DNA of 64,000 nt from Glaucostegus cemiculus. Taxonomy: Eukaryota. Of this stretch, positions 6,506 through 62,155 are shown in pieces (the first letter of the stretch is position 1; every line of letters begins with the position of its first letter). The DNA is taken from NCBI GenBank assembly GCA_976551045.1, contig CDPCPM010000026.1, forward strand, positions 6,262,001-6,326,000, given 5' to 3'. Both the position numbers and the translations under genes were made by a program. Under the pieces are notes generated by a model. The model searched no databases and was not told the DNA's origin. It saw only the letters and a program-made list of their open reading frames with translations.

Positions 6506-6792
6506 TGCTGTGATTTGACATTAAATTCCACAAGAAAAACATACAGCATTTCTTAAAAAGCAAATTTACAATAAAAATTTTCAGTCAGATCACTCCTGAC
6601 TTGACCTGTTATTACAAATGTGTCTTTAAAAAAGCAGTCTCTTTTGAATATCTTGTACGTAACTGAAAAGTATGGCAGACAAGCTTCGTCCCATGTATTG
6701 TACAGCTTGCAGAATGTGGGAATTCAAAGATGCTCCTGGCAGTCTGGGTGATCACATCTCAGGAGGTGCTTCCATTATGTCCACTTCAGGGA

Positions 6793-7715
6793 GAAACAAA
6801 GGACTACAGATGCTGGAATCTAGATGTAAAACAGGGTGATGTTGGAGGAAGTCAGCAGGCCAGGCAGCATCTGTGGAGAAAAGAAGGCGGTCAACTTATC
6901 CTGAAATGTTAACCCCCTTCCTTTCTCCTCGGATGCTGCTTCAGAACTTGGTTTTAGAGCTTGAGTGCTGACTAGAGGCATTACGATGCATCTGTCCCTT
7001 TTCTCTCTTCCCCTGATCTACCCAGTTCCTCCAACATCCACCCTACTCTCAGCTCCCCATCACCCTGGTTACCCAGTCCCTACTCCACCTTCGCTCCGGT
7101 TCCCCTGAACTACCCAGTTCCTACTCCACCCACTCCATCTGCCCATCACTCACACACTTCTCCCACTTGTGTCCCCTCCCCCTACTGTTCCCATCTACCC
7201 ACCCCACCTCCCTTATTTGGCTCCATTCTTCACCTTCCTTCCCCATCATCTGCAGCCTTTTGTTATATCCACCTATTACCTCCCAGTCTCTGTCACTATT
7301 CCCACTCTTCCCTCCTCCATCTGCCTCTCACCCCTTCTCTCCTGGATCCTCCTATCGCTTGCCAGCTCTTGCTTCACCTCTTCCCCTCACCTGACTCTCT
7401 CCGCTCTATATTTCAGTGTAGATTAAGGGTGTCATCCTTCCACTGATGCTGCCTGATCTTGCTTTTAACTTTGTTTATAATTTATCCCCATGGTAACCCT
7501 GGTGTTACCCTATTAGAGACATCACCCTCCCCTACCCCTCCCTGTGGCTGAACAAGCTTCTTTTCTCTCCTTTTCAGGTCTGATGAAGGGTCTCCGATCT
7601 GAAACAGTGACTCTGTTTCCCTTCCCACAGACGCTGCCTGACTTGATAAGTATTTCCAGCACTTTTCGTTCTTGTTTTAGACTTCCAGCGCCTGCAGGTT
7701 TTTTTTTTGATTTTC
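6793..7715. mobile_element. Cluster of Penelope-like terminal repeat fragments
   Basis: Minus-strand terminus (cagatgctggaatctagatg...cagcaggccaggcagcatctgtggag), CT-rich 3' UTR at 6990-7420 similar to 18300-18640, and a plus terminus with ctgatgaagggtctccgatctgaaac at 7580. Confidence 0.8.
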
Positions 7716-7724
7716 ACTGACCAG

Positions 7725-9768
7725 GAGAAGAGCTGGATGCACTAGGGACCAAAAGGTAATCTGTATAGAGCCTGAAGATTTAGGCAAGGTTTTAAATAAG
7801 TATATTTCATCAGTATACACTAAAGATAAGGACATTTGTAGTTGGAATTCAGAAAGGTGATTGGTGAAATTCTAGAAGGTGTTATCATTAAGAAGGAGGT
7901 TGTAGATATCTTAGCTGTCGTGAAGGTGGATCAATCTCTAGGGGGCCTGATGATGTGGATCCCAGGCTGTTATAGCAAGCAAGGTAGGAGATTAATCCAG
8001 TCTCTCAAGATGCTGGGGCTGCTGGGGCTCTGGAAGAGATGGTTAAATCTTTGCTGGCCAAATGATTGGAGGACAGCAAATAAAGTACCTTTATTCAAAA
8101 GGGATAAAGGAGGGATAAGCCAAATAATTGAGTTTAACATTAGTGGCAGGGAAGTTATTGGAAAAGTCCTGAGAGTCTGCACTTGGAAAGGCAGGGATTA
8201 ATCAAAAATTGTCATCTTTGTTAGGAGCATATCCTGTTTGACCAATATGAAGAAGGCAGTGTGTTTGATGGATTTCAGTAAGGCCTTTGACAAGGTCCCA
8301 CATGGAACACTCGTCGAAAAGGTTAAGCCCATGGGATGAAGGGAAAGCTGGCTTGGTGACAGTAGGCAGAGGGTGATGATGCAGGGTTTTTGTTAGGACC
8401 AGAAGCCCGTAACCTGAGCTCTACCACAGCAACAACAAACAACTTGCTGGAGGAACTCAGCAGGTTGAGCACAGGGATTGGGACTGGAACTCTTACTGTT
8501 TGTTACATACATTAACAATTTGGGTGTGAGTGCCAGAGGTATGATTAGTAAGTTCACAGAAGACATGTAAATTGGTTGTGTTGTTGGTATGGACTACCAT
8601 AATCTTTAGACAGTATTGATGAGGTGGTAAAATGGGCAAAGGAATTGCAGATGGAACTTAATCCTGTTAAGTGTGAGGTGATGCATTTTTGGAGGATGAA
8701 TAAGGCTAGGATATACACAATGAATGGTAGGATCTTAGCGGGTATTGAGGAGCGGAGGGGCCTTGCTTAGGACCCCCATCAGCAGGGCCATGCCCTCTTC
8801 TCATTGTTGCCATCATGCAGCAGGTACAGGAGACACAAGAGATTCTGCAGAATCTGGAATCTGGAGACAAGAGATTCTGCAGATTCAGGAGGTACAGGAG
8901 CCTGAAAACCCACACCTCAAGAGTCAACAACAGCTTCTTCCCCACTGCCATCAGGTTCTTGAATCAACCTGAAGAACCCTAATTCTATCTCAGACTATAT
9001 TTCCCTCAGATTGCACTAATGTCATAGTGTTTATATTTGTTTATTCTGTTGTGTCAGTTATGTATATTTTTTGTTGATTTATGTTTATGTAATTTATGTT
9101 TGTCATGTTTGTAATGCACTCTGCTGATGCTGGAATAAACTAAGTTTCATGGCGTTTATAGCTTGGGTATGTACGCTATCATCAGCTGTAAGGGTATGAA
9201 GGAAATGGTACAATTTTATGAACCATTAGTTTGGCCACATCTGGAGCACCCTGGTCAACACACTATAGGAAGGACATGATTGTAATGGAGAGGGTGCAGG
9301 GGACATTTACCAAGAGGACATTTACTGAGATGGAGTTGTCAGCTGTAGAAGAAACTGATAGGCTGGATTTGTTTTCCTTGGAGTGGAGGAGGCAGAGGGG
9401 AGACCCGACTGAGGTATACAAAATTATGAGAGGCATACGTAGGGTAGATAGAAAGAAACTTTTTCCCAAAGAAGAGGTGACCCACACCAGACAGCATATG
9501 TTTAAGGTAAAGCCTGGGAGGATTAGAGGGGAGTTAAGGAAGATTTTTTTTTCCACACAGAGTATAATCTGGAACGCACTGCCTGATTGGGTGGTTGAAG
9601 CAAAGATTCTCACAGCATTTAAGAAGTATCAAGAGAAGAATTTGAATCACCAAGGCATAGAAGACTACAGACCAAGTGCTGGTAAATGGGATTAGTGCAG
9701 AGAAGTATTCAGTACTTGTAATGGGCATGGTGGGCTGAAGTGCCTGCTTCTGTTCTGTATGACACTAT
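7725..9768 (+). mobile_element. CR1 LINE, 5'-truncated, frameshifted, with nested insertions
   Basis: ORF2 pieces DWRTANKVPLFK, DFSKAFDKVPH (gatttcagtaaggcctttgacaaggtcccacat), RGDPTEVYKIMRG and IWNALP; CR1 3' end gggctgaagtgcctgcttctgttctgtatgac. Confidence 0.9.
8886..9180 (+). mobile_element. Rex1/Babar LINE 3' end nested in CR1
   Basis: RRYRSLKTHTSRVNNSFFPTAIRFLN-type C-terminus; same family as 51919-52345(-). Confidence 0.8.
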
Positions 9769-17095: not shown

Positions 17096-17127
17096 ACAGT
17101 GAATTTCACTCAATGTATTCAGACCAT

Positions 17128-18735
17128 AACACAAGAGATTCTGCAGATGCTGGAATCAGGAGCAACACACACAAAATGCTGTTAACAGACCCAACCTGTT
17201 CCCCTCCACTGCCATCCTCCTCCATCTGATAGGACTGGTACTCACCCTCAACAACTTCTCTTTTGACTCCTCCCACTTTCTCCAAACTGCTGCCGAGCTT
17301 GTCAATTTCATCAACTTTGACTCCAACTTCCACCCCACCCTTAAATTCACTTGGTCCATCTCCATCACCTCTCTCCCCTTTCTGCATCTCTCTGTCTCCA
17401 TATCCAGAGACAGATTAATCACTGACATCTTTAACAAGCCCACTGACTCCCACAGTTGCCTTGACTAAACTTCTTCCCACCCTGTTACTTGCAAGGATGC
17501 TATCCTCTTCTCCCAATTCCTCCATCTCCACCACATCTGTTCCCATGATGAGAATTTCCATTCTGGGACATCTGAGATGTCCTTTTTTTTCAGTAAACAG
17601 AGTTTCCCCTCCACCACCATCAATGCAGCCCTCACCTGCATGTCCTCCATTTCCCGTGGGTCTGTCCTCACCCCTCACCCCTCCCAACATAACAGGGACA
17701 GGGTTTCCCTTGTCCTCACCTACCACCCCACAAGATTCCCCATCCAACACCTCATTCTCTGCAACTTCCTCCACCTCCAGCAGGATCCCACCACCAGGCA
17801 CATCCCCTTCCCCCCCTCTTTGCTTTCCACAGGGATTGTTCTCTCCATGACTCCCTTGTCCACGCGTCCCTCCACACTGATGACCCTCCTGGCACTTATC
17901 CCTGCAACCACACCAAGTGCTACACCTGCCCCTGCACCTCCTCCCTCACCAGCATTCAGGGCCCCAGACAGTTCTTCCAGGTGAGGCAGCGCTTCACCTG
18001 TGAATCCGAGGGTGTCATTTATCGCATCTGGTGCTCCCAGTGTGGCCTCCTCTACATCAGTGAAACCCGATGCAGATTGGGTGACCACTTCATTGAATAC
18101 CTTCGCTCTGTCTACCGCAACAGCCAGGATCTTTTGGTATCCAGCCAGTTTAATTCCACATCCCACTCCCGTCCTGACATGTCTCTCCTCTACTGCCATG
18201 TTGAGGCCAGATGCAGGATCGAGAAACAACACCTCATATTCCGCTTTGGAAGTTTCCAACCTGACAGCCTCAACATTGATGTCTCTAACTTCAGGTAACC
18301 CCTCCCCTCTTTCCTGTCTCCTCTTTTTATCCCCCTTCCCTTTGTTTCCCTCATTCCTATGGCCCCCTCATCCCTTCTCCTCCCCCTCCCCTGTCCTCAT
18401 GACCTGTATATCTATTTCCCACCTCCTTCCCTTCATTCCATGGTCCACTGCCCTTCTGGATTCCATTTTCTTCAGCACTTTCCTTCTTCTACCTATCATC
18501 TCCCAGCTTCTTACATTACATCCTTTCATCCCCCCTCCCCCACCCACCTACCTTCCCCCTTTCACCTGGACTCACCTCTCATCTGCCAGTCTGTGCTCCT
18601 CCCCCGACCTTCTCATTCTGGCTTCTCTTCCTCTCCAGTCCTGATGAAGGGTCTCAACCTGAAACGTCGACTGTTTATTTCCCTCCATCGATGCTGCCTG
18701 ACCTGCTGAGCTCCTCCACCATTTTGTGTGTGTTG
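17128..18735 (+). mobile_element. Penelope-like retroelement (partial RT + GIY-YIG endonuclease + terminal repeat) with TSD
   Basis: GIY-YIG ORF 17981-18298 (FTCESEGVIYRIWCSQCGLLYISETRCRLGDHF...EKQHLIFRFGSFQPDSLN); RT-thumb pieces (LVLTYHP); inverted terminal piece 17128-17181; TSD tattcagaccat at 17116-17127 and 18738-18749. Confidence 0.93.
18636..18673 (+). ncRNA. Minimal type I hammerhead ribozyme in Penelope terminal repeat
   Basis: CAGTC-CTGATGA-AGG(gtctcaa)CCT-GAAA-CG-TC-GACTG: stem I cagtc/gactg, conserved core, stem II, palindromic ACGT stem III, GUC cleavage triplet ending at 18668. Confidence 0.82.
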
Positions 18736-19886
18736 TATATTCAGACCATGTACTTCTTCTTCACAGATTTTGTCACTAAAACTTACTGAAATAACAGACC
18801 TTGCTTTTGAGGGAGGAGACAGGTTGATGATAAGTTTGTTTAAGTGGGATAAACAAATATTCAGTAGCCACACAGAAATTAACAACGTTTGAAAAGAATC
18901 TCTGGACAGACACTGACCTGAACTGCCCCAGGAAATACAGAGTAATTCATATTTCCCTCCGTAGTTGTCAGGAAGCTGAGTGCTCCAGCGTGACCATGAA
19001 AACTTCAAACGTCCTGACAGGTGCTCAGCAGCGACTTCCTGCCCGGCTGCACTCCACAATTGGTGACCAATGCCACAGTGCCATCTCCCAGCACTTTGAC
19101 TAGGAAACATTTCTCATGGACCCTTGCCAGCTTACACCTGGCACAACTCAGTGACACTGTTCATTTCAATGGAATGAACTGACTGTGATGGAGGCAGATA
19201 TAAAGTAATTTACATATGTTAATTAATTAAATTAATTAAATTAATATGCTTTCTATTTTTTTAAAGTCCTTTTGTTTATATATTTTAGAATTTTAGTTAA
19301 AATGTAACAGTGTGATTATTTTACTTTTTGAAGTATTTATGAGTTAGAAATATTCACAAATAACAGCCAGCTCAGCTGGGGCTGAGGTGTCAGTTGGATA
19401 GAGCTTACCACTCGTGGCCAACAGGACTTCACCATCCACACTGGAGTTCCCTTCCTTCAGGAAGCTGCTGCATGAAGGTCCACTCCCAGTAAGTAAAGAC
19501 CCAGTGAGGAGGAGAGAGATGAGTGGGGAGGTTTGAAACTTCCAGAAAATTCTAGAGCAAGTATGTTTATTGTATTTGTATGGAATAAGATTTACATTTC
19601 TTCAAAATGTCCAATCAGCATCAAAACTAATCAGTTAGTCAGTTATGGGAGCAATAAACCCATGTGGGAAATATTTTTGTCAAAGCAGCAACTCTGTTGT
19701 ACATCTGACACATTTTTTTTATATGTGAAGAGCTTCTAGGAGAAGGTAGTGATCATTCTCAGTCTGTTGGTATTGCTGAGGGGATTACCTTGATAGACTG
19801 CTGGATCATTTGAGTATTTTGCTTAGCTGATGTGATCAGTAATTATTGGGAATGAAGATGGAGAAACTTGTATTTCTCCAGTAATT

Positions 19887-21058
19887 TCTGCCTTCAATAC
19901 GATAATTCCAAGCAAGCTTGTCACCAGACTCCAAGACCTAGGACTCAGCTCCTCCCTCTGCAACTGGATTCTTAAATTTCTAACAAACAGACCGCAGTCA
20001 GTGAGGATAGGCAGCAATACCTCCGGCACAATTATTCTCAACACTGGTGCCCCACAAGGCTGCATCCTCAGCCCTCTACTCTGCTCCCTATACACTCACG
20101 ACTGTGTGGCCAGATTCTGCTCCAACTGCATCTACAAGTTTGCAGATGATACCAGTGTCGTGGGCCATATCTCCAACAGCGACGAGTCAGAGTACAGGAA
20201 GGAGATAGAGAGCTTAGTGGAATGGTGTCATGACAACAACCTTTCCCTCAATGCCAACAAAACAAAAGAGTTGGTCATTGACTTCAGGAAAGGGTGCGGT
20301 GTACATGCACCTGTCTACATCAATGTTGCTGAGGTTGAGAGGACTGAGAGCTTCAAGTTCCTAGGTGTGAACATCACCAACAGCCTGTCCTGGTCTAACC
20401 ATGTAGATATCACAACCAAGAAAGCTCAACAGCGCCTCTACTTCCTCAGGAGGCTGAAGAAATTTGGTATGTCCCCTTCGACTCTCACCAACTTTTACCG
20501 ATGCACCATAGAAAGCATCCTATCTGGTTGTATCATAGCTTGGTATGGCAACTGCTCTGTCCAGGACTGCAAGAAACTGCAGAGAGTTGTGGACACAGCC
20601 CAGCACATCATGGACACCAGCCTCCCCTCCTTGGACTCTGTCTTTACCTCTCGTTGTCTTGGTGTAGCGGCCAGCATAATCAAAGACCCCACTCATCCAG
20701 GACATTCTTTCTTGTCTCCGCTTCCACTGGGTAGAAGATACAGGTGCCTGAGGGCACGCACCACCAGACTTAAAGACAGCTTCTTCCCCACTGTGATAAG
20801 ACTATTGAACGGTTCCCTTATACAGTGAGATGGTCTGTGACCTCACATCCTACCTCGTGCGTCCTTGCACCTTATTGTACTGCACTTTCTCTGTAGCTGT
20901 GACACATTGTACTGTTACTGTTTTTACTGTACTACATCAATGTACTTTGTACTAACTATGTAATTGCACTGTGTAATGAATTGACCTGTACGATCAGATT
21001 GTAAGACAAGCTTTTCACTGGACATCGGTACAAGTGACAATAATATGCCAATACCAAT
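19887..21058 (+). mobile_element. Rex1/Babar LINE, 5'-truncated
   Basis: [11 protein letters not shown] start, RT ORF, 3' UTR ending gtgacaataatatgccaataccaat. Confidence 0.92.
20001..20828 (+). pseudogene. Rex1/Babar reverse transcriptase, C-terminal 275 aa open frame
   Basis: [62 protein letters not shown]. Confidence 0.9.
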
Positions 21059-34952: not shown

Positions 34953-35630
34953 AGACCATAAGACATAGGAGCAGAAATAGGCCATTCAGCCCATTGAGTC
35001 TGCTCTGGCATTTGATTATGGCTGATATATTTTCCCCTCTCAACCCCCATTCTCCTGCCTTCTCCCCATTACCTTTGATGCCCTTACTAATCAAGAACCT
35101 ATCAACCTCCACTTGGCCTCCACAGCCATCTGTAGCAATGAATTCCACAGATTCACCACCCTCTGAGTAAAGAAATTCCTCGTTATCTCTGTTCTAAGGA
35201 GATGTCCTTCTCTTCTGAGGCTGTGCTCTCTGGTCCTAGACTTTCCCACTACTGGAAACATCCTCTCCTCACCCACTCTATCCAGGCCTTTCAATATTTG
35301 GTAGGTTTCAATGACATCCCCCCTCATCCTTTTAACCCCAGCAAGTTCAGGCCCAGAGCCATCAAAAGCACCTCATACATTAACCTTTTCACCCCTGGGG
35401 TCATTCTCACAAACCTCATCTGAACCGTCTTCAGTACCAGCTCTCCAATACCTCTCCAATACAGTCCCAATGAAGGGTCTTGGCCCAAAACGTCGACTGT
35501 TTATTCCCCTCCAAGAATGCTGCCTGGCTTGCTGACTTCCTCCAGCACTTTTTGTGTATTGCTCCAGTTTCCAGCATCTGCAGAATTTCTTATGTTTCTG
35601 TCCTTCCTTAGATATGGAGCCCAACACTCC
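34953..35630 (-). mobile_element. CR1 3' portion interrupted by a Penelope terminal repeat
   Basis: MRGDVIETYQILKGLDRV...RNFFTQRVVNLWNSL; 3' end agaccataagacataggagcagaaataggccattcagccc. Confidence 0.9.
35461..35597 (+). mobile_element. Isolated Penelope terminal repeat with mutated hammerhead
   Basis: acagtc-ccaatga-agggtcttggccc-aaaa-cgtc-gactgt, then tgctgcctggcttgctgacttcctccagcac...ccagcatctgcagaatttctt. Confidence 0.85.
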
Positions 35631-38144: not shown

Positions 38145-38280
38145 TGATGCACAAAGCAAACTGCTGGAAGAACTCAGCGGGTACACTAGAATCTGTGGAG
38201 GCAAAGGGATGGTTGACTGGAGACACAAGAGACTTCGGATGCTGGAATCTGGACCAAAAAACAAACTGCTGGAAGAAATG
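38145..38280 (-). mobile_element. Tandem Penelope terminal fragments
   Basis: caaactgctggaagaa occurs twice, around gacacaagagacttcggatgctggaatctgga. Confidence 0.7.
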
Positions 38281-40370
38281 GCTAATACTGATCTTTGATG
38301 CAACATCAGCAAAACGGAACACTTGGGCATTATCAGACCACTGTTTCTGAAAGTTCACTGTGAAGAAATAGGCTGACAGGAGGCCTATATTACAATAATG
38401 ACTGCATTTAAATAAAAACACGATTGGTTGCAGAGTACTAAACATCGTGTTAAATAAATGCAAGTCTTCCTTTACATATGATGCTTTAGCTAGCTCAAGA
38501 GCTACAATAGTAATGGATATGTGCTCCATTTGACATTACATTTTATCTGTCCATCTAAACTTTTTCAAGTCCAAAGAAACAGATATTTTGAATTCACACC
38601 ATGGCTGCTAGGATTTCTTTTGTTTATTAACTTATGGATAGAGAAAGTACACAGTGCCATACAGACCGAAATGCGTTAAATGTCTTCTACATCCATAACG
38701 ATTAAACAAACTGTGATGTCAGAAGAAAATTCCAGTAACCTTTGCTCAAGCCAGAAAACTAATAAAAACACTTAGCGGACTGTTTACAATTCCTGTCCAT
38801 CTGCATCATAGAAATAATCCTTATTGATTGTTGACCTCTTTGATAGGATTTGGAATTTCTGCCAAGGTGTTTGCCTGTACTGAGGTATTTGATGGTTCTA
38901 GGACGAGACACATTTATTGAAGTCTTCACCCATCTTTTAAATTATTTCCAATCGTATATCATGTCACTGACTGAAGTGACATGAACCTCGAGGGAGCTTG
39001 GTGCACACACAAATATGTAAAAAGAAAATGATTGATTTTGAAAACATTGTTATTTTGAATTCAAAAGCAAGTTTAAGTATGGTTTGCTTTGTTTTAGTTC
39101 TGTGCAAATATATGTCTTATAATAAACACAGATCAGCTGGTGGTGAGTTTTCTAGCTTAGTAGCAAATTGCAAGCATGTGAGAGAAGAACCAGATTTCCA
39201 ATTCAATTCCAGTGGCATAGTATTAGATTAATAACCTTTAGGCTCAAAGTCATGTTCATCCCATGTGGAAGAGAAGGATTCAATTCCAGTGATGTGTTCC
39301 TCCCTAACTTGTTTGATGGAAGTGTTGAACAAAGATCTGATTTGTTGCAAAAACTTTAAATGCCTGTGAAAGGAAGCGTTTCATCTTTGCCTCATTTCCC
39401 AATAAATTTCTCTCATTACTCTACAAACACTAACTTTCTCAGGAAAGTCAGTCATTTACAGATTGATGTCATGAAGTACGACAGATTGTATTCATAGATG
39501 GTGTGAGAGTTGTTTGTGTTCTTGACCCTAATACACTCGAACTTGTTTGTGCATCTATGCTGGATGACACAACAAGCTGCCTTCAGTTGGTAGTTGGGAT
39601 TTACAAATGTTCAATTTCAATCAATCAAAAGGGGTAAAAAAGCAGTCACTAAAACTTCTAAAACAAATATTTGGTAACATCTGTATGCTAATGACTGAAC
39701 ACTCCAGACCATCACTGAATAGAGTAGCTTTTCATGTAGTTACAGGTTTATCACTGGACTATTGTAATGAATCAATCATCTTCTGAGTAGCCATATTATT
39801 AGAACATCAATCAATGTTGACTAAACTGACTTCAATCCGATTTACCCATCTTATTATCCCTAAGGTCTTTATCACTGATGATTGTCACACTGGGGATATC
39901 TTGAAAGAAGGTTACTGTTAACATGGAACATAAGAGATTTGATTTCAGATGCTAACATTCAACTCTTTCTATTTGTTCTGCAGCTCACTCAGTATTACTG
40001 CTTAGTTCCAAGATGCAGTAGTGACAGATTAACCTTTGGGGATAGAAACAACATCCTAACAATTCAAAGGTTCCAAAAGGACTGGAGTGTTTTGGAGCAT
40101 TTTCACAGTTTAGGTTGAGGATAAAATGATGTATAATTATTATCTTCTGCTATAATGGGCCAGGTTGTGTTTGACCGATCCCAAGCCTTGTGCTCTCTGT
40201 TTGCGCTATTCCATGGACAATAACCCTTTGTAGCTCTGCAAAGGTCCTCACTGCCACAACAGTCTTGAGTACTGAAATTGATTCTGAGTGGTGACAAAGT
40301 CCCAGGTAACACATCCTGAATCCTTGCTTCTGGCCTTTGACAGCTCATCAGAGGCAAATAAAATATCTGT

Positions 40371-45283: not shown

Positions 45284-45311
45284 TCATAGCGAATCTGTTG
45301 TCATTCCATCA

Positions 45312-45800
45312 AAAGAGAAATATTCAGCAGGTCAGGCAGCATCCATGGAGAGAGAAGCACAGTAAATATTTCAAGGAGATAATCTTTCATCAGAACTGGA
45401 AAAGTTAGAAATAGGTTTAAGATGCAGAGAAAGAGGGAGAAGGGGGAGCAAAAGTCTGTGACAAGCTGCAAAGAAAGAGAGCTTGAATGACAAAAAGGAA
45501 TGATGGTGCAAGATGAAAGGAGGTGGTAAAATTTGCAACACCCATCCTTTTATCCACTATCCAGGAGATAAACAACCTACAGGTGAATCAATGAATGTGC
45601 CTCCTGCGGTGAATTGGGCCAGTGTTGCAGGGCTGGTCTCTTCACTCTGAGCCGGACACATCTGGTTGCACCTCTCTAAACTGTCTTCACCTCCAATGTC
45701 TCCTAGATGCCTCCCCCTTGGTAAGCCATTGGGCACAGCAGTGGTTGACTTCAGAATATATTGTTCATTGCTCAAGGTGTTGTCCTGTGTGCACTGGAGT
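45312..45800. mobile_element. Penelope terminal repeat (-) joined to a GIY-YIG-proximal fragment (+)
   Basis: cagcaggtcaggcagcatc...ctttcatcagaactgg on minus; cactatccagg...caggtgaatca and attgttcattgctcaaggtgt...cactggag on plus. Confidence 0.65.
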
Positions 45801-46571: not shown

Positions 46572-46711
46572 AAAAAAAAACCTCCGCAGCCCCAAATCAT
46601 ATCTTTGCTGATTGTAGAGTCAGCATCATCAACTTTATGAATTTGAATTTTGGGATTGTTTTATTTTGGTGCAGTAGCAGAAAACTACTAACATTAAGGT
46701 GATTTCACCTG

Positions 46712-48507
46712 ATAGAACATACAACACTATGGCACAGTACAGGCCCTTTGGTCCATGATGTTATGCTGACATTTTATCCTGCTCTAAGATCTATCTAACC
46801 CTTCCCTCCCACATAGCCCCCATTTTTCTATCATTCATGTGTCTATCTAAGAGTCTCTTGAATGTCCCTAATGTACCTGCCCCCACAACCTCAGCCGGCA
46901 GTGCATTTCACGCACCCACCACTCTTAGTGTAAAAAAAAATTACCCCTGACATCCCCCTTATCCCTTCCTCCAATCACCTTAAAATTATGTCCCCACGTG
47001 TTACCCATTGACGCCCTGGGAAAAAATCTCCAACTGTCCACTCAATCTATACCTCTTATCATCTTGTACACCTCTATCAAGTTGCCTCTCATCCTCCTTC
47101 ACTCCAAAGGGAAAAGCCCTAGCTCGCTCAGCCTATCCTCATAAGACATGCTTTCCAATCCAGGCAACATCCCGGTAAATCTCCTCTGTACTCTTTCTAA
47201 AGCTTCCACATTTTTTCTATAATGAGGTGACTAGAATGGAACACAATACTCCAAGTGTGGTCTGACCAAAGTTCTATAGTGCTGCAACATCACCTCGCGG
47301 CTCCTGAACTCAATACCCTGTCTAAAGAAGGCCAACACTCCATACGCCTTCTTAACAACCCTACCGACCTGTGTGGCAACCTTGAGGGATCTATGGACAT
47401 GGACCCCAAGATCCCTCTGTTCCTCCACACTTAGCAGTCCTGCCATTAACCTTGTATTTCTGCCTTTGAATTTGATTTTCTGAAGTGTATCACTTCACAC
47501 TTCACACTGCCACTTCTCAGCCCAGCTCTGCATCCTATCAATTTCTGTTGTAATCTACAGCAACCTTCTACACTATCCACAACACCACCAACCTTCAGGT
47601 CATCTGCAAACTTACTAACCCACTCTTCCACATCCTCATCTAAGTCATTTATGAAAATCACAAAGAGCAGGGGTCCCAGAACATAACCCTGTGAAATACC
47701 ACTGGTCACCGACCTCCAGTCAGAATATGCTCCATCTACCACCACCCTCTGTCTTCTATGGGTGATCCAAATCTGAATCCACACAGCCAAGTTTCCCTGG
47801 ATCCCATGCTTCCTGACTTTCTGAATATGTCTTCCATGAGGAACCTTATCAAATGCCTTATTAAAATCAATGTACACCACATCCACTGCTCTAACTTCAT
47901 CAATGTGCTTTGTCACATCCTCAACAAATTCAATCAGGCTTGTGATGCACGACTTGCCCCTCACAAAGCCATGTTGACTGTCCCTAATCAGCCCATGCTT
48001 CTCCAAATGCCTGTAAATCCTGTCACTAAGAATTTTCTCCAGTAATTTGCCCACCCCTGAAGTAAGACTCACTGGTCTGTCATTCCTAGGGTTATCCCTA
48101 CTTCCTTTCTTAAACAAAGAAACAACATTTGCCACCCTCCAATCATCCTGCACTACTCCTGTGGCCAGTGAGGATGCAAAGGTCGTCATCAAAGGTGCAG
48201 CAATCTCTTCCCTAGCTTCCCGTAATAACCTTGGATATAAACTGTCCGGACCCAGTGACTTATTTATCCTGATGTTTTTTCAATAGTTTCAGCACATCCT
48301 CTTTCCTCACATCGATATGCCCTAGCATATCAGTCTGTCGTACACTGTCCTCACAGACATCTAGGTCTCTCTGGTGAATACTGAAGCAAAGTATTCATTA
48401 AGGACCTTCCCTACCTCTTTCGACTCCAGGCATATGTTTCCTCTTTTATCCCTGATTGATCCTACCCTCATTCTAGTCATCCTCTTAGTCTTTACATATG
48501 TGTAGAT
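46712..48507 (-). mobile_element. CR1 LINE, 5'-truncated
   Basis: ORF 47446-48192 with RPVSLTS, QHGFVRGKSC, DFNKAFDKVPH, QGYVLGP, KFADD; ORF 47231-47446 LVRPHLEYC; intact 3' end. Confidence 0.95.
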
Positions 48508-51918: not shown

Positions 51919-52345
51919 GAGTTCAAGTTTAGGTTGTCATATGCATACATACACAGGGTATAAGTACCATGGAAACTTTTTTGCAGCAGCATAGTACATT
52001 ACAAGATGAAGACAAACATAAGTTAATATACACTTGAAGTAACATAAATTATACATAACTTATATATGTGCAAAATAAACATACCAACACTAGTACAAGA
52101 CTGAGAAACAGAAAAAATATATTGTCTGAAGTAGCGTTAAGGTTTTTTAGATCAGTTAAAAAATCTGATAGCAGTGGGGAAGAAGCTGTTGTTGAACCTT
52201 GTGGTGTGGGTCTTCAGGCTTCTGTACCTCCTTCCTGATGGTAGCATCGAGAAAAGGGTATGACCTGGATGGTTGGATTCTCTGATGATGGATGCTGCCT
52301 TCCTGAGACATTGCGTCTTGCAGATGGTGATGGAAGCCCAAGGGA
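51919..52345 (-). mobile_element. Rex1/Babar 3' end
   Basis: ctgatagcagtggggaagaagctgttgttgaacc...caggcttctgtacctccttcctgatgg; (aacttg) tail. Confidence 0.85.
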
Positions 52346-58289: not shown

Positions 58290-58482
58290 AAAATAAATCT
58301 ACATATGCTGAAAGCTGAAATAAACAAGGAAAATTCAGGAAACACTCAGCAAGTGAGGCAGCACTTGTGGAAAGAGAAATGAAATTAATGTTTCAGGTCT
58401 GAAACCCTTTGTCAGAACTGGGAAAGAGAGAAAACAAGTCAGATACAGTTACAGAGAGCTGGAGGAAGGGTGAGTAGAACAA
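58290..58482 (-). mobile_element. Penelope terminal repeat with decayed hammerhead
   Basis: Reverse complement cagtt-ctgacaa-agggtttcagacct-gaaa-catt-aatt; ggaaacactcagcaagtgaggcagcac. Confidence 0.75.
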
Positions 58483-59090: not shown

Positions 59091-60020
59091 ACAAAGGAAT
59101 AGCTCTTTCAGGGTGAGGTCAAATGAGTAAATGTGGCTGTCAGGGCTAGACTATGCTACTGTGTCCATGTTAAGTATTGCTAGTGAGAGGTTCTCTGTCA
59201 CCTTCAATGTGTCAGCTCTGCTTCTGGCCAGTTGAGAAAAAAGGCTGAGGAAGGAGAAGACCTTAAAGTCAGCACAAAACTCACAGTCTAACAGGCAGCA
59301 ATGATCTCTGTCCTCTATACGCTTCTGAGCCATTGAGTATCTACAGCAGGTACCTCAGAGGACTGTGAAAGTAACATTGTCACACCTCCCACAAAATCCT
59401 CCAAATCCACTGGTGAAGAAGCAAACTAACATTGCCCTTCTCTCCTGGGCCAACATTCCAGCAGAGAGCTTCTAATTATATTCATTCAGCTCAGATGGGC
59501 TGAATGGTCACATTGTTCACATGCCTCACACCATACCCTCCAAACAGGCACACTAATCTGAGCTTCATCATAGTAAGACATTACCAGGAGAATAGAGGGA
59601 AGGAATCAAAATGCTTTTGAAGTCTCCTTGAAATAGCATTACATTCCCCTGACTTGAGGGAATCCCTGGCCCGTGATGGAGAAGGAATGTCCTCTGGATT
59701 GCACCAAGAGCTTGTCTATTTGTTGGGAGTGCACAGAAGTCCAGTTTAATTGGCGGGAGGAGTGCACCACCTCCCAAACTACCCACACCCACTTTACCAT
59801 CTAGTAGAGTATCTCTTGCCTCAACTGTGGCAATTTCTGTGCGTCTTCCATCAGCCTCATCACATGCTGATGTTCTGCTGAAGAAAAGGAAAAGGAAGAA
59901 GTATGCATGACTTGCAGCTAGAGCTGGGGGGCAAGGATAATTCCATGGATAGTTTCTAGGAGACAAGGTCAGAGAGTTGGAAGAGCAGCCCTTGGAGGAA
60001 CAGTGATGGTTATGAACCAC

Positions 60021-60114
60021 AGCATGCAGGGTGTGTTGGGAAGCATGCAGGGTGTGTTGGGAAGCATGCAGGGTGTGTTGGGAAGCATGCAGGGTGTGTT
60101 GGGAAGCGTGCTGG
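60021..60114 (+). repeat. Minisatellite, 21 bp x 4 perfect copies plus a partial copy
   Basis: agcatgcagggtgtgttggga at 60021, 60042, 60063 and 60084. Confidence 0.97.
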
Positions 60115-60764
60115 AAAGCCATTTCAATGTCAGGAATCATGGAGGACCAGACACTGGCTTGGCTCAGGGCTTTGGGGGAGTGCTTTCCAGTGTGGAAGTG
60201 GTGACTGAATCCTGCAGCTGCATCTTCTGGCCAACGTTGTAGCTTTTGCTGCAGTCAGGAGTAGAAGCCATCAAATGCCGTGTGTTCCCGTGAATCATTT
60301 CACAGCTCTAGATTTTAGTGTCCAAAGGGTCTTGCAGACCCCCACATCAGTTTTGCAATCTGTCCTTGAATGGGTTACCAGGATTACTTGATAAGAGGTA
60401 TATAAGATTACGAGAAGCATAGACAGAGTGGACAACCTGCATCTTTTCCCTGCCTTGAAAGAGAAGTGATCATTCCAAGGAGCATGAACCTGCAGTCCTT
60501 TCTCAAGAAGGCAGCATTTCTCCTTCTTCCCTGATGCTGGCCCCATACCCCTTGTGCTTTTCCTGTTGCCTGTCTATTTACTAATGTCTGCTGCTGCCCT
60601 TGGCAGAGCCTTCTTGATCCAGAGCTGCTTGAGGTTTTCCTCCAAGGTCAACTCTCATCTCAACAGTTGATTGAGAGGCTTCCACCGGCTGTGCTGTAGC
60701 CACAGAACCAGAGGGTCACACACCATGGAAACAGGTCCTTTGCCTATTGTATTTAACATAAACC

Positions 60765-62155
60765 AATACAACACAGTGTGGGCCCTTCGGCCCACAATGT
60801 TGCGCCGACCTATATAAACCTTATCCCCATTCAATCTATCCCCCTCTCTACTTCACCTCCCATAACCCACTATTGCTATTTTGTCCATGTGCCTGTCTAA
60901 CAGTCTCTTAAATGACTCTATTGTATCAGCCCCTACCACCACCCCTGGCAGTGCATTCCAAGCAGCCATCACTCTGAGTTAAAAAACCTACCTCTGACAT
61001 CTCCCCTGAACTTTCCTCCTCACACCCTAAATGGGTGAGCTTTAATACTGGCCATTGCCATCCTGAGGATAAAATGTTGGCTGCCCACTCCATCTATGCC
61101 TTTCATAATCTTATACCCCTCTGTTAAGTCTCCTCTCATCCTCCATCTCTCCAAGGGGAAGAGCCCTAACTTGCTCAGCCTCTCCTCATAAGACATGTTC
61201 TCCAGTCCAGGCAACATTCTTGTAAGCCTCCTCGGCACCTTCTCCAAAGCTTCCTCATTCTTCTTATAATATGGCAACCAGGACTGAACACAATATTCCA
61301 GATGTGGTCTAACCAGGGTCTTATAGAACTGCAACATTACCTCTCTGCCCTTGAACTCAATCCCCCAGCTAATGAAGGCCAGCACACCATATTTCTTTTT
61401 AACTACCCTATCAATTTGCATGCAACTTTGAGGGATCTATGTACTAGAATCCCAAGATCATTCTGTTCCTCCACATTGCTAAGGATCTTATCGTTAACCA
61501 TGTACTCTGCCTTCAAGTTCGATCTTCCAATGTGTATCATTTCACACTTCTCTGATTGAACTCCATCTGTCACTTCTCTGCCCAGCTCTGCATTCTGTCA
61601 CTATGCCATTGCAACCTAAGACAACCTTTTGCACTATCTACTACACCACCAACCTTTGTGTCATCAGCAAACTTACCAAGCCATTCTTCTGCTTCGTCAT
61701 CTAAGTCACTTATAAAAATCACAAAGAGCAGGGGTTCCAGACAGATCCCTGTGGAACACCACTAGCCACTTTACCTTCATCAATCTGTCTTGTCACTTCC
61801 TTGAAAGGCTCTATTAGACTTGTGAGGCATGACCAGCCCTTCACAAAGCCATGTTGACAATCCCTTATAAGACTATGTGCCTCCCAATGCTCATAAAGCT
61901 TGTCCCTAGGAATCCTCTCCAATAGTTTGCCCACCACTGACGTAAGACTAACTGGTCTATAATTCCCAGGATTATCCTTTTACCTTTCTTGAACAATGGA
62001 ATAATGTTTACCATCCTCCAATTCCTCTGGTACCACCCCTGGGGCCAGAAAGTGCTCAAAGATCATTGTTAGTTCTCCAGCAATCTTTTCCCTTGCTTCC
62101 CTGGGGTATATCCTGTCCGACCCTGGGGACCTATCTATCCTAATGTTTTTTAGTA
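60765..62155 (-). mobile_element. CR1 LINE, 5'-truncated, with internal deletion
   Basis: FYKTLVRPHLEYCVQSW, QHGFVKGWSCLTSL, GVPQGS; about 180 nt is missing near 61770 relative to 47710-47890. Confidence 0.93.

Follow-up and report, generated by a model that had tools for sequence, protein, structure and literature searches.

A minimal hammerhead motif in the pseudo-LTR of a broken Penelope-like element of Glaucostegus cemiculus

Minimal hammerhead ribozymes (min-HHR) of metazoan Penelope-like elements (PLEs) were described by Cervera and De la Pena in 2014, and both the class and its dimer requirement are set out in the main text of that paper (PMC4209133). Two motifs pair there through a palindrome, so that the active site is shared across copies; in Schistosoma, a single motif gave no cleavage and dimers and trimers showed low activity. 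A G-C pair at positions 10.1-11.1 is highly conserved in the class, as a trait of the consensus that stands outside the descriptor. The main text, taken without its supplements, names neither sharks nor rays, and our search of the literature, partial in coverage and excluding supplements, found no study devoted to such motifs in these animals.

Three further systems invite comparison. In the anole, the Poseidon element PAc (Frangieh et al. 2024, PMC11167929) has its hammerhead in the pseudo-LTR (pLTR); downstream comes a tail of 30-40 nt, which lies between two points where reverse transcription starts. As described in that report, the hammerhead cut only with protein added, was dispensable for insertion in vitro, and had no RNA-seq reads beginning or ending at its cut site; priming at two start sites and off both strands was found in vitro for the same element. 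The Neptune/Nematis EN+ PLEs encode a reverse transcriptase (RT) followed by a C-terminal GIY-YIG endonuclease, joined by a linker of CX2-5CxxC type that marks this group in the account of PMC8557442. Non-LTR retrozymes carry type I hammerheads related to those of PLE pLTRs (PMC7229834; bioRxiv 10.64898/2026.07.22.740005), and the latter source reports hammerhead-bearing retrozymes in one chondrichthyan.

The insertion and its coding remnant

The motif studied here lies at 18636-18673 of the window, by which we mean the whole 64,000-nucleotide stretch of DNA that was analysed. The pseudo-LTR that carries it belongs to a broken, 5′-truncated Penelope-like element at 17128-18737, with the following features.

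17116-17127 (+): left target-site duplication of 12 bp, an exact repeat of 18738-18749
17128-17181 (-): inverted 5′ piece derived from the 3′ end of the pseudo-LTR, an 87% reversed match to 35543-35596
17184-18298 (+): 5′-truncated remnant of a Penelope-like RT-endonuclease ORF, from tblastn with P0001, P0002, P0006, P0009 and P0030
17903-17929 (+): CX4CxxC zinc-finger-like linker, from the translation
18014-18061 (+): decayed GIY-YIG motif, VIY...YIS, with YIG changed to YIS as judged by translation and relatives
18299-18737 (+): 3′ untranslated region and pseudo-LTR, from self-BLAST; family-like sequence stops at 18735
18636-18673 (+): minimal type I hammerhead motif, comprising stems I and II, core, A18648 and palindrome, with a predicted cut after 18668
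18738-18749 (+): right target-site duplication of 12 bp, an exact repeat of 17116-17127

The hammerhead follows the stop codon of the ORF remnant at a distance of 338 nt, and family-like sequence ends 62 nt beyond it. Of the 54 bases of the inverted piece, 19 coincide with the 3′ end of the element itself, 18 of them being alike, and the other 35 form a tail beyond that end; the loose ends of relatives at 18735 run on into this tail. Across the insertion (17116-18749), the sense part extends to 18735 and the inverted 54-nt part begins 35 nt further along the family sequence. The anatomy is typical of PLEs, since 5′ truncation, an inverted 5′ piece and a 35-nt tail correspond to the 5′ truncation, inverted 5′ copy and tail described for Neptune/Nematis elements in PMC8557442. 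Structurally, the insertion would fit priming off each of the target strands, with two start sites close together; the 35 nt that separate the 3′ end from the start of the inverted piece in the family resemble the spacing reported for PAc (PMC11167929). On this reading, it would neatly illustrate, in a genome, the model in which Penelope elements are primed at two start sites and from two strands.

The GIY-YIG ORF reported by the initial annotation proved to be a broken remnant rather than an intact gene. It retains the single-ORF order of RT then GIY-YIG endonuclease, and has lost about 51 codons near 17285, in which the RYIDD motif of its relatives lies. An in-frame stop follows at 17466-17468 and a frameshift near 17804-17831, and the glycine present in 75 of 77 motif-matched relatives (121 proteins examined) is replaced at the YIS position. 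A Pfam scan of the remnant did not detect GIY-YIG. Both endonuclease cysteines are kept, and the relatives' two histidines, which we take to be those of the CCHH motif, are Tyr and Gln in the remnant. To judge from its letters, the element is dead, because its RT catalytic motif is deleted, its frame carries a stop and a frameshift, and YIG has become YIS.

A first protein search with the remnant returned two Hypanus sabinus proteins, and a second yielded 334 relatives, the best of them from rays and sharks; many have RT and some GIY-YIG domains (PF00078, PF01541). In the best stretches, the remnant is 49-69% identical to ray and shark proteins. The linker is also present in 102 of the 121 proteins examined, and the element is likely of Neptune type, an assignment that stems from this one motif rather than from a tree. 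It departs from Neptune/Nematis elements as described in PMC8557442 by the absence of a tandem pLTR, by its lost catalytic motifs, and by an insertion site outside a (TA)n microsatellite with a clear 12-bp duplication. PAc, in comparison, is an intact Penelope/Poseidon element whose ORF starts in stem II (PMC11167929), whereas the element at 17128-18737 is dead and has the Neptune/Nematis linker. As a separate observation, two ray proteins (P0006 and P0007), annotated under host genes as isoforms of a divergent kinase and of a chitinase-domain protein, are largely made of the ORF of this PLE; they are either exonised copies or annotation artefacts.

Motif structure and predicted folding

Re-reading of 18636-18673 gave the same letters as the initial annotation, and much of the structure described there stood. 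Stem I has the stated length, with five Watson-Crick pairs (18636-40/18669-73). All core nucleotides are present, as claimed: CUGAUGA at 18641-47, which fits CUGANGA, GAAA at 18661-64 and a U-H cleavage site make the core complete. Of the annotated stem II of 3-4 bp, the four pairs held and the A-U register did not; that register was predicted at -7.5 kcal/mol, against -8.3 kcal/mol for a shifted one in which 18649-52 pairs with 18657-60 (G·U, G-C, G-C, U-A) after an unpaired A18648. The shifted register is our best reading of the predictions, and C at 18660, found in about half of the relatives, fixes it. The core-closing pair (10.1-11.1) is consequently a G·U wobble in this copy, which does not agree with its description as fully intact. 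Helix III is absent beyond the core. Positions 15.2-16.2 form the palindrome ACGU (18664-67), which is loopless, and stem III cannot form within one molecule, as had been proposed. The annotated cut site after C18668, which we take to be C17 in hammerhead numbering, is right by analogy with the minimal hammerheads of PLEs.

The identification as a Penelope-type minimal type I hammerhead matches the descriptor features given in the main text of PMC4209133. Held in common are the type I topology (here a 5-bp stem I with a 4-bp stem II), the full core, a 5-bp helix I, a palindromic 15.2-16.2 without loop 3, an unpaired base between 9 and 10.1 (A18648 here), location in the pLTR, and occurrence mostly as single dispersed copies of truncated elements. 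Two differences were noted: helix II has 4 bp here, as opposed to 7-8 bp in the Schistosoma families, and 10.1-11.1 is G·U here and G-C in the consensus. Because G10.1-C11.1 is not a defining requirement in that work, 18636-18673 can be counted as a departing member of the family; by its descriptor features, it is a metazoan PLE minimal hammerhead that deviates in one consensus pair. Non-LTR retrozymes, by contrast, are short tandem repeats with at least two motifs in a row (PMC7229834), and here a single motif accompanies an ORF remnant. A retrozyme was rejected, because the motif is not part of a tandem array and the nearest same-strand copies, 11 kb and 16.8 kb away, are both broken.

We searched both strands of the window with a descriptor requiring the core, three stem II pairs and four stem I pairs. 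The sole match was 18636-18673. In 200 third-order Markov simulations of 64 kb, relaxed hits occurred at 0.03 per simulation and strict hits at zero. The covariance-model check suggested by the initial annotation gave no hammerhead match in Rfam 15, at E up to 1 for the window and up to 10 for the 201 bases around the motif, so that 18636-18673 matches none of the canonical hammerhead families there. The folding z-score of the region was -1.35, and pair counts over five window copies (the two near 6925 and 92 were too decayed to be included) showed covariation no higher than in shuffles. Pattern matches in metagenome contigs (31 loci) and viral contigs (three loci) were put down to chance; none of the 34 resembles the element (blastn, tblastn) or the hammerhead. 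Viral contigs searched for relatives of the locus yielded none.

Folding was predicted with nearest-neighbour energies, which take no account of Mg2+, tertiary contacts or protein help. The 38 bases alone form stem I with a predicted probability of 1.0 and stem II with 0.94, and fold as a rod in which core positions 18643-46 are paired with 18665-68. For two molecules, the double hammerhead was predicted at -14.1 kcal/mol; two monomers came to -21.0 and the most favourable inactive dimer to -24.0, so that the active dimer is predicted to be 7 kcal/mol worse than two monomers. For the natural copy at 35462, in which G-C closes stem II, the double hammerhead was predicted at -20.1 versus -19.0 kcal/mol. 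A G·U pair at 10.1-11.1 would slow cleavage, and we found no published measurement of this effect in the literature. In vitro, two bare 38-base motifs joined in tandem may nevertheless cleave. Dimer cleavage has reportedly been described by Lunse et al. in RNA Biol.

With flanks on both sides, the predicted probability of stems I and II was at most 0.04 in five of five contexts; in three shorter contexts, the stems were predicted at 0.6 to 1.0. One downstream segment is implicated.

18681-18689 (+): segment predicted to pair with 18643-18651, blocking the hammerhead fold in a manner that depends on C18689

Forcing C18689 to be unpaired restored the stems in four of six contexts, the exceptions being the two longest. 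This base, present in at most 2-4% of family depth, is predicted to favour a fold that destroys both stems.

Relatives in the window and in related genomes

The window holds six further fragments of the same pseudo-LTR region, and among the seven copies, only that at 18636-18673 combines CUGANGA, GAAAC and ACGUC. The G·U at the stem II closure recurs in three of five aligned window copies. No tandem unit or intact partner for the motif was found in the window. One fragment matters for what follows.

35455-35596 (+): closest family member on the same strand, lying 16.8 kb downstream, with a broken core, a G-C closure of stem II and the tail

In this fragment, the cleavable half (35490-35499) is intact. 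Pseudo-LTR or tail fragments with no ORF nearby number eight beyond the studied element (35455-35596, 7558-7700, 45290-45420(-), 58305-58445(-), 6785-6935(-), 85-215, 38195-38330(-) and 8833-8866(-)); any of these that reaches the hammerhead has a broken core.

Other repeats occur in the window. A 330-aa open frame at 19836-20828 (+), with a Pfam RVT_1 match (E 1e-18), belongs to a different retroelement 1.1 kb downstream, and related pieces lie at 8887-9000 and 52119-52290. Two decayed LINE copies with RT matches (46700-48280 (-) and 60750-62000 (-)) are about 77-85% alike and 14 kb apart. An inverted repeat (51332-52048/58545-58997) has arms of up to 191 nt that are 82-88% complementary and about 7 kb apart, and a 21-nt unit forms a tandem array at 60000-60125, with several copies identical. 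When 343 stop-to-stop frames of at least 55 aa from the whole window were compared with Pfam, only retroelement RT scored above the curated cut-offs. Frames of at least 90 aa read by eye contained no recognisable host exon, a reading that could miss small exons in which Pfam has no domain, as well as an intron of great length. A weak GAIN hit at 35094-35372 was rejected, its translation reading as the tail of what is presumably a LINE.

We aligned contigs from four of 24 sequencing runs, one from each of four organisms, to 18520-18960 at 80% likeness. All four runs contained related contigs (16,840, 38,167, 58,427 and 25,703). In two runs, X3 and X7, the summed depth over the motif exceeded the depth of the flank contig by a factor of about 100,000, a ratio that is not a copy number and is a sign of very high family abundance. 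The initial annotation had named a family consensus without stem I/II complementarity as grounds for doubt. This condition is not borne out: stem I is kept in most contigs, stem II is stronger in about half of them, and the complementarity of both stems holds in the family. Among the differences listed, C replaces T at 18660 in 45-58% of family depth, giving a G-C closure of stem II, and G replaces A at 18656 (46-57%) and 18657 (30-34%). CpG-type transitions affect 18661, 18665, 18666, 18668 and 18669 at 12-27% each, positions that belong to the core, the palindrome or the cut site.

The in-motif differences listed are nearly all CpG-type transitions, which we read as a sign of decay without selection. 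The copy studied here departs from the commoner letter at two of 38 motif positions in three of the four runs, a rate per base at least as high as its rate in the rest of the pseudo-LTR (seven places listed in about 180 bases). T at 18660 accounts for 42-55% of depth, as against 13-14% change at the other base of that CpG, an excess over symmetric CpG loss that does not suit decay alone; the G·U closure may be a tolerated subfamily trait, or may reflect bias from aligning on this copy. None of the 24 loose ends listed falls at the cut site.

In X3 and in X7, a single contig spans the 3′ junction of the insertion, with 18 differences in 259 letters in the former and 20 in 268 in the latter (about 7%). 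These contigs include 36 and 45 bases of the element side and end before the motif. The insertion is common to these two relatives and predates the split from them; it is old, because the relatives that share it are about 7% diverged in the flank. In run X1, the unique flank had no cover, which proves nothing about presence.

Some features of the alignments concern the region around the motif. The stretch just downstream of the hammerhead (18685-18714) has 2-5 times the hammerhead depth in all four runs, and so is shared more widely than any other part of the pseudo-LTR. Strand-switch joints occur in many related contigs between 18636-18644 and 18676-18698, and many others start at 18636-18637 with unrelated sequence before. 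Inversion or family boundaries thus cluster at the hammerhead.

Relic or working ribozyme

We consider it about 85% probable that the hammerhead, carried in the pseudo-LTR of a broken Penelope-like element of likely Neptune type, is as a lone copy an inactive relic that rarely or never cuts cellular RNA. Following published work, tandem copies of the active parent would have put two motifs into one RNA, and the ACGU palindromes of two copies would have paired to give a 4-bp stem III. Each active site would then combine the 5′ half of one copy with the 3′ half of the other, and cleavage would follow C17 (18668 here), probably helped by the element's protein. After insertion, the copy would have drifted without selection and lost its coding capacity, and it may have held or gained the weak G·U closure of stem II and the base that favours the blocking fold. 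Several observations speak against inactivity: core nucleotides, palindrome and stem I are all intact, the bare 38 bases are predicted to fold both stems, the G·U closure may be tolerated in a subfamily, and the orthologous contigs of X3 and X7 stop short of the motif.

The same intact features could instead belong to a working ribozyme, which would cut after 18668 on meeting another intact copy in trans, or when assisted by the protein of an active family member, and so might cut a plus-strand read-through host transcript. Related genomes offer very many potential partners, and the anole element provides a precedent for protein-assisted cleavage (PMC11167929). Against this stand the G·U closure, the unfavourable dimer energy and the blocking folds, the lack of an intact partner and of a visible host exon in the window, and, as far as the published accounts go, the weakness of dimers (PMC4209133) and the absence of RNA-seq ends at the anole cut site (PMC11167929). 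We regard a working ribozyme as unlikely. Cutting of read-through host transcripts, as put forward by the initial annotation, found no support, since no host exon was seen, the natural flanks are predicted to draw the motif into another fold, and the window holds no intact partner.

It is very unlikely that dispersed relics act as half-ribozymes, with 18636-18673, in which the catalytic half is whole, cutting a copy that keeps only a cleavable half, such as 35490-35499 on the same strand 16.8 kb off. The reverse cut does not arise, because the 35462 copy has a broken core and cannot cut after 18668. Cleavage of this kind would need both copies in one long transcript together with an active element's protein. 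If true, and with relatives numbering tens of thousands in each genome, this would be a source of RNA breakage throughout the genomes of rays and sharks.

More doubtful still is a regulatory ribozyme kept by the host, like the conserved intronic hammerheads of amniotes. The age of the insertion, common to two related organisms, and a core that is whole, unlike those of the six other window copies, could be taken in its favour. An intact core needs no selection, however, because, on the assumption of independent changes, the five CpG-prone positions would all survive in about 32-45% of family depth, a range that the 80% filter biases upward; moreover, the motif has no stable stem III, and the window shows no sign of a host gene. 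A chance likeness is the least credible reading of all and is largely refuted, for although the missing Rfam match, the modest z-score and the covariation counts would suit it, the rarity of simulated hits, the fit of the PLE pseudo-LTR location, the extra base at 9/10.1 and the palindrome to the published consensus, and a climb of about 50- to 180-fold in the depth of relatives between the bin that precedes the motif and the one inside it all tell against it.

Read as a probable relic, the motif adds a further copy, carried by a dead transposon, to a ribozyme class that is already published. Lone copies that cut RNA in cells, if shown, would matter, as cleavage by PLE minimal hammerheads in vivo is not reported in the sources cited here. 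Ray-like genomes hold very many such motifs, which could be used for studying how the motif decays.
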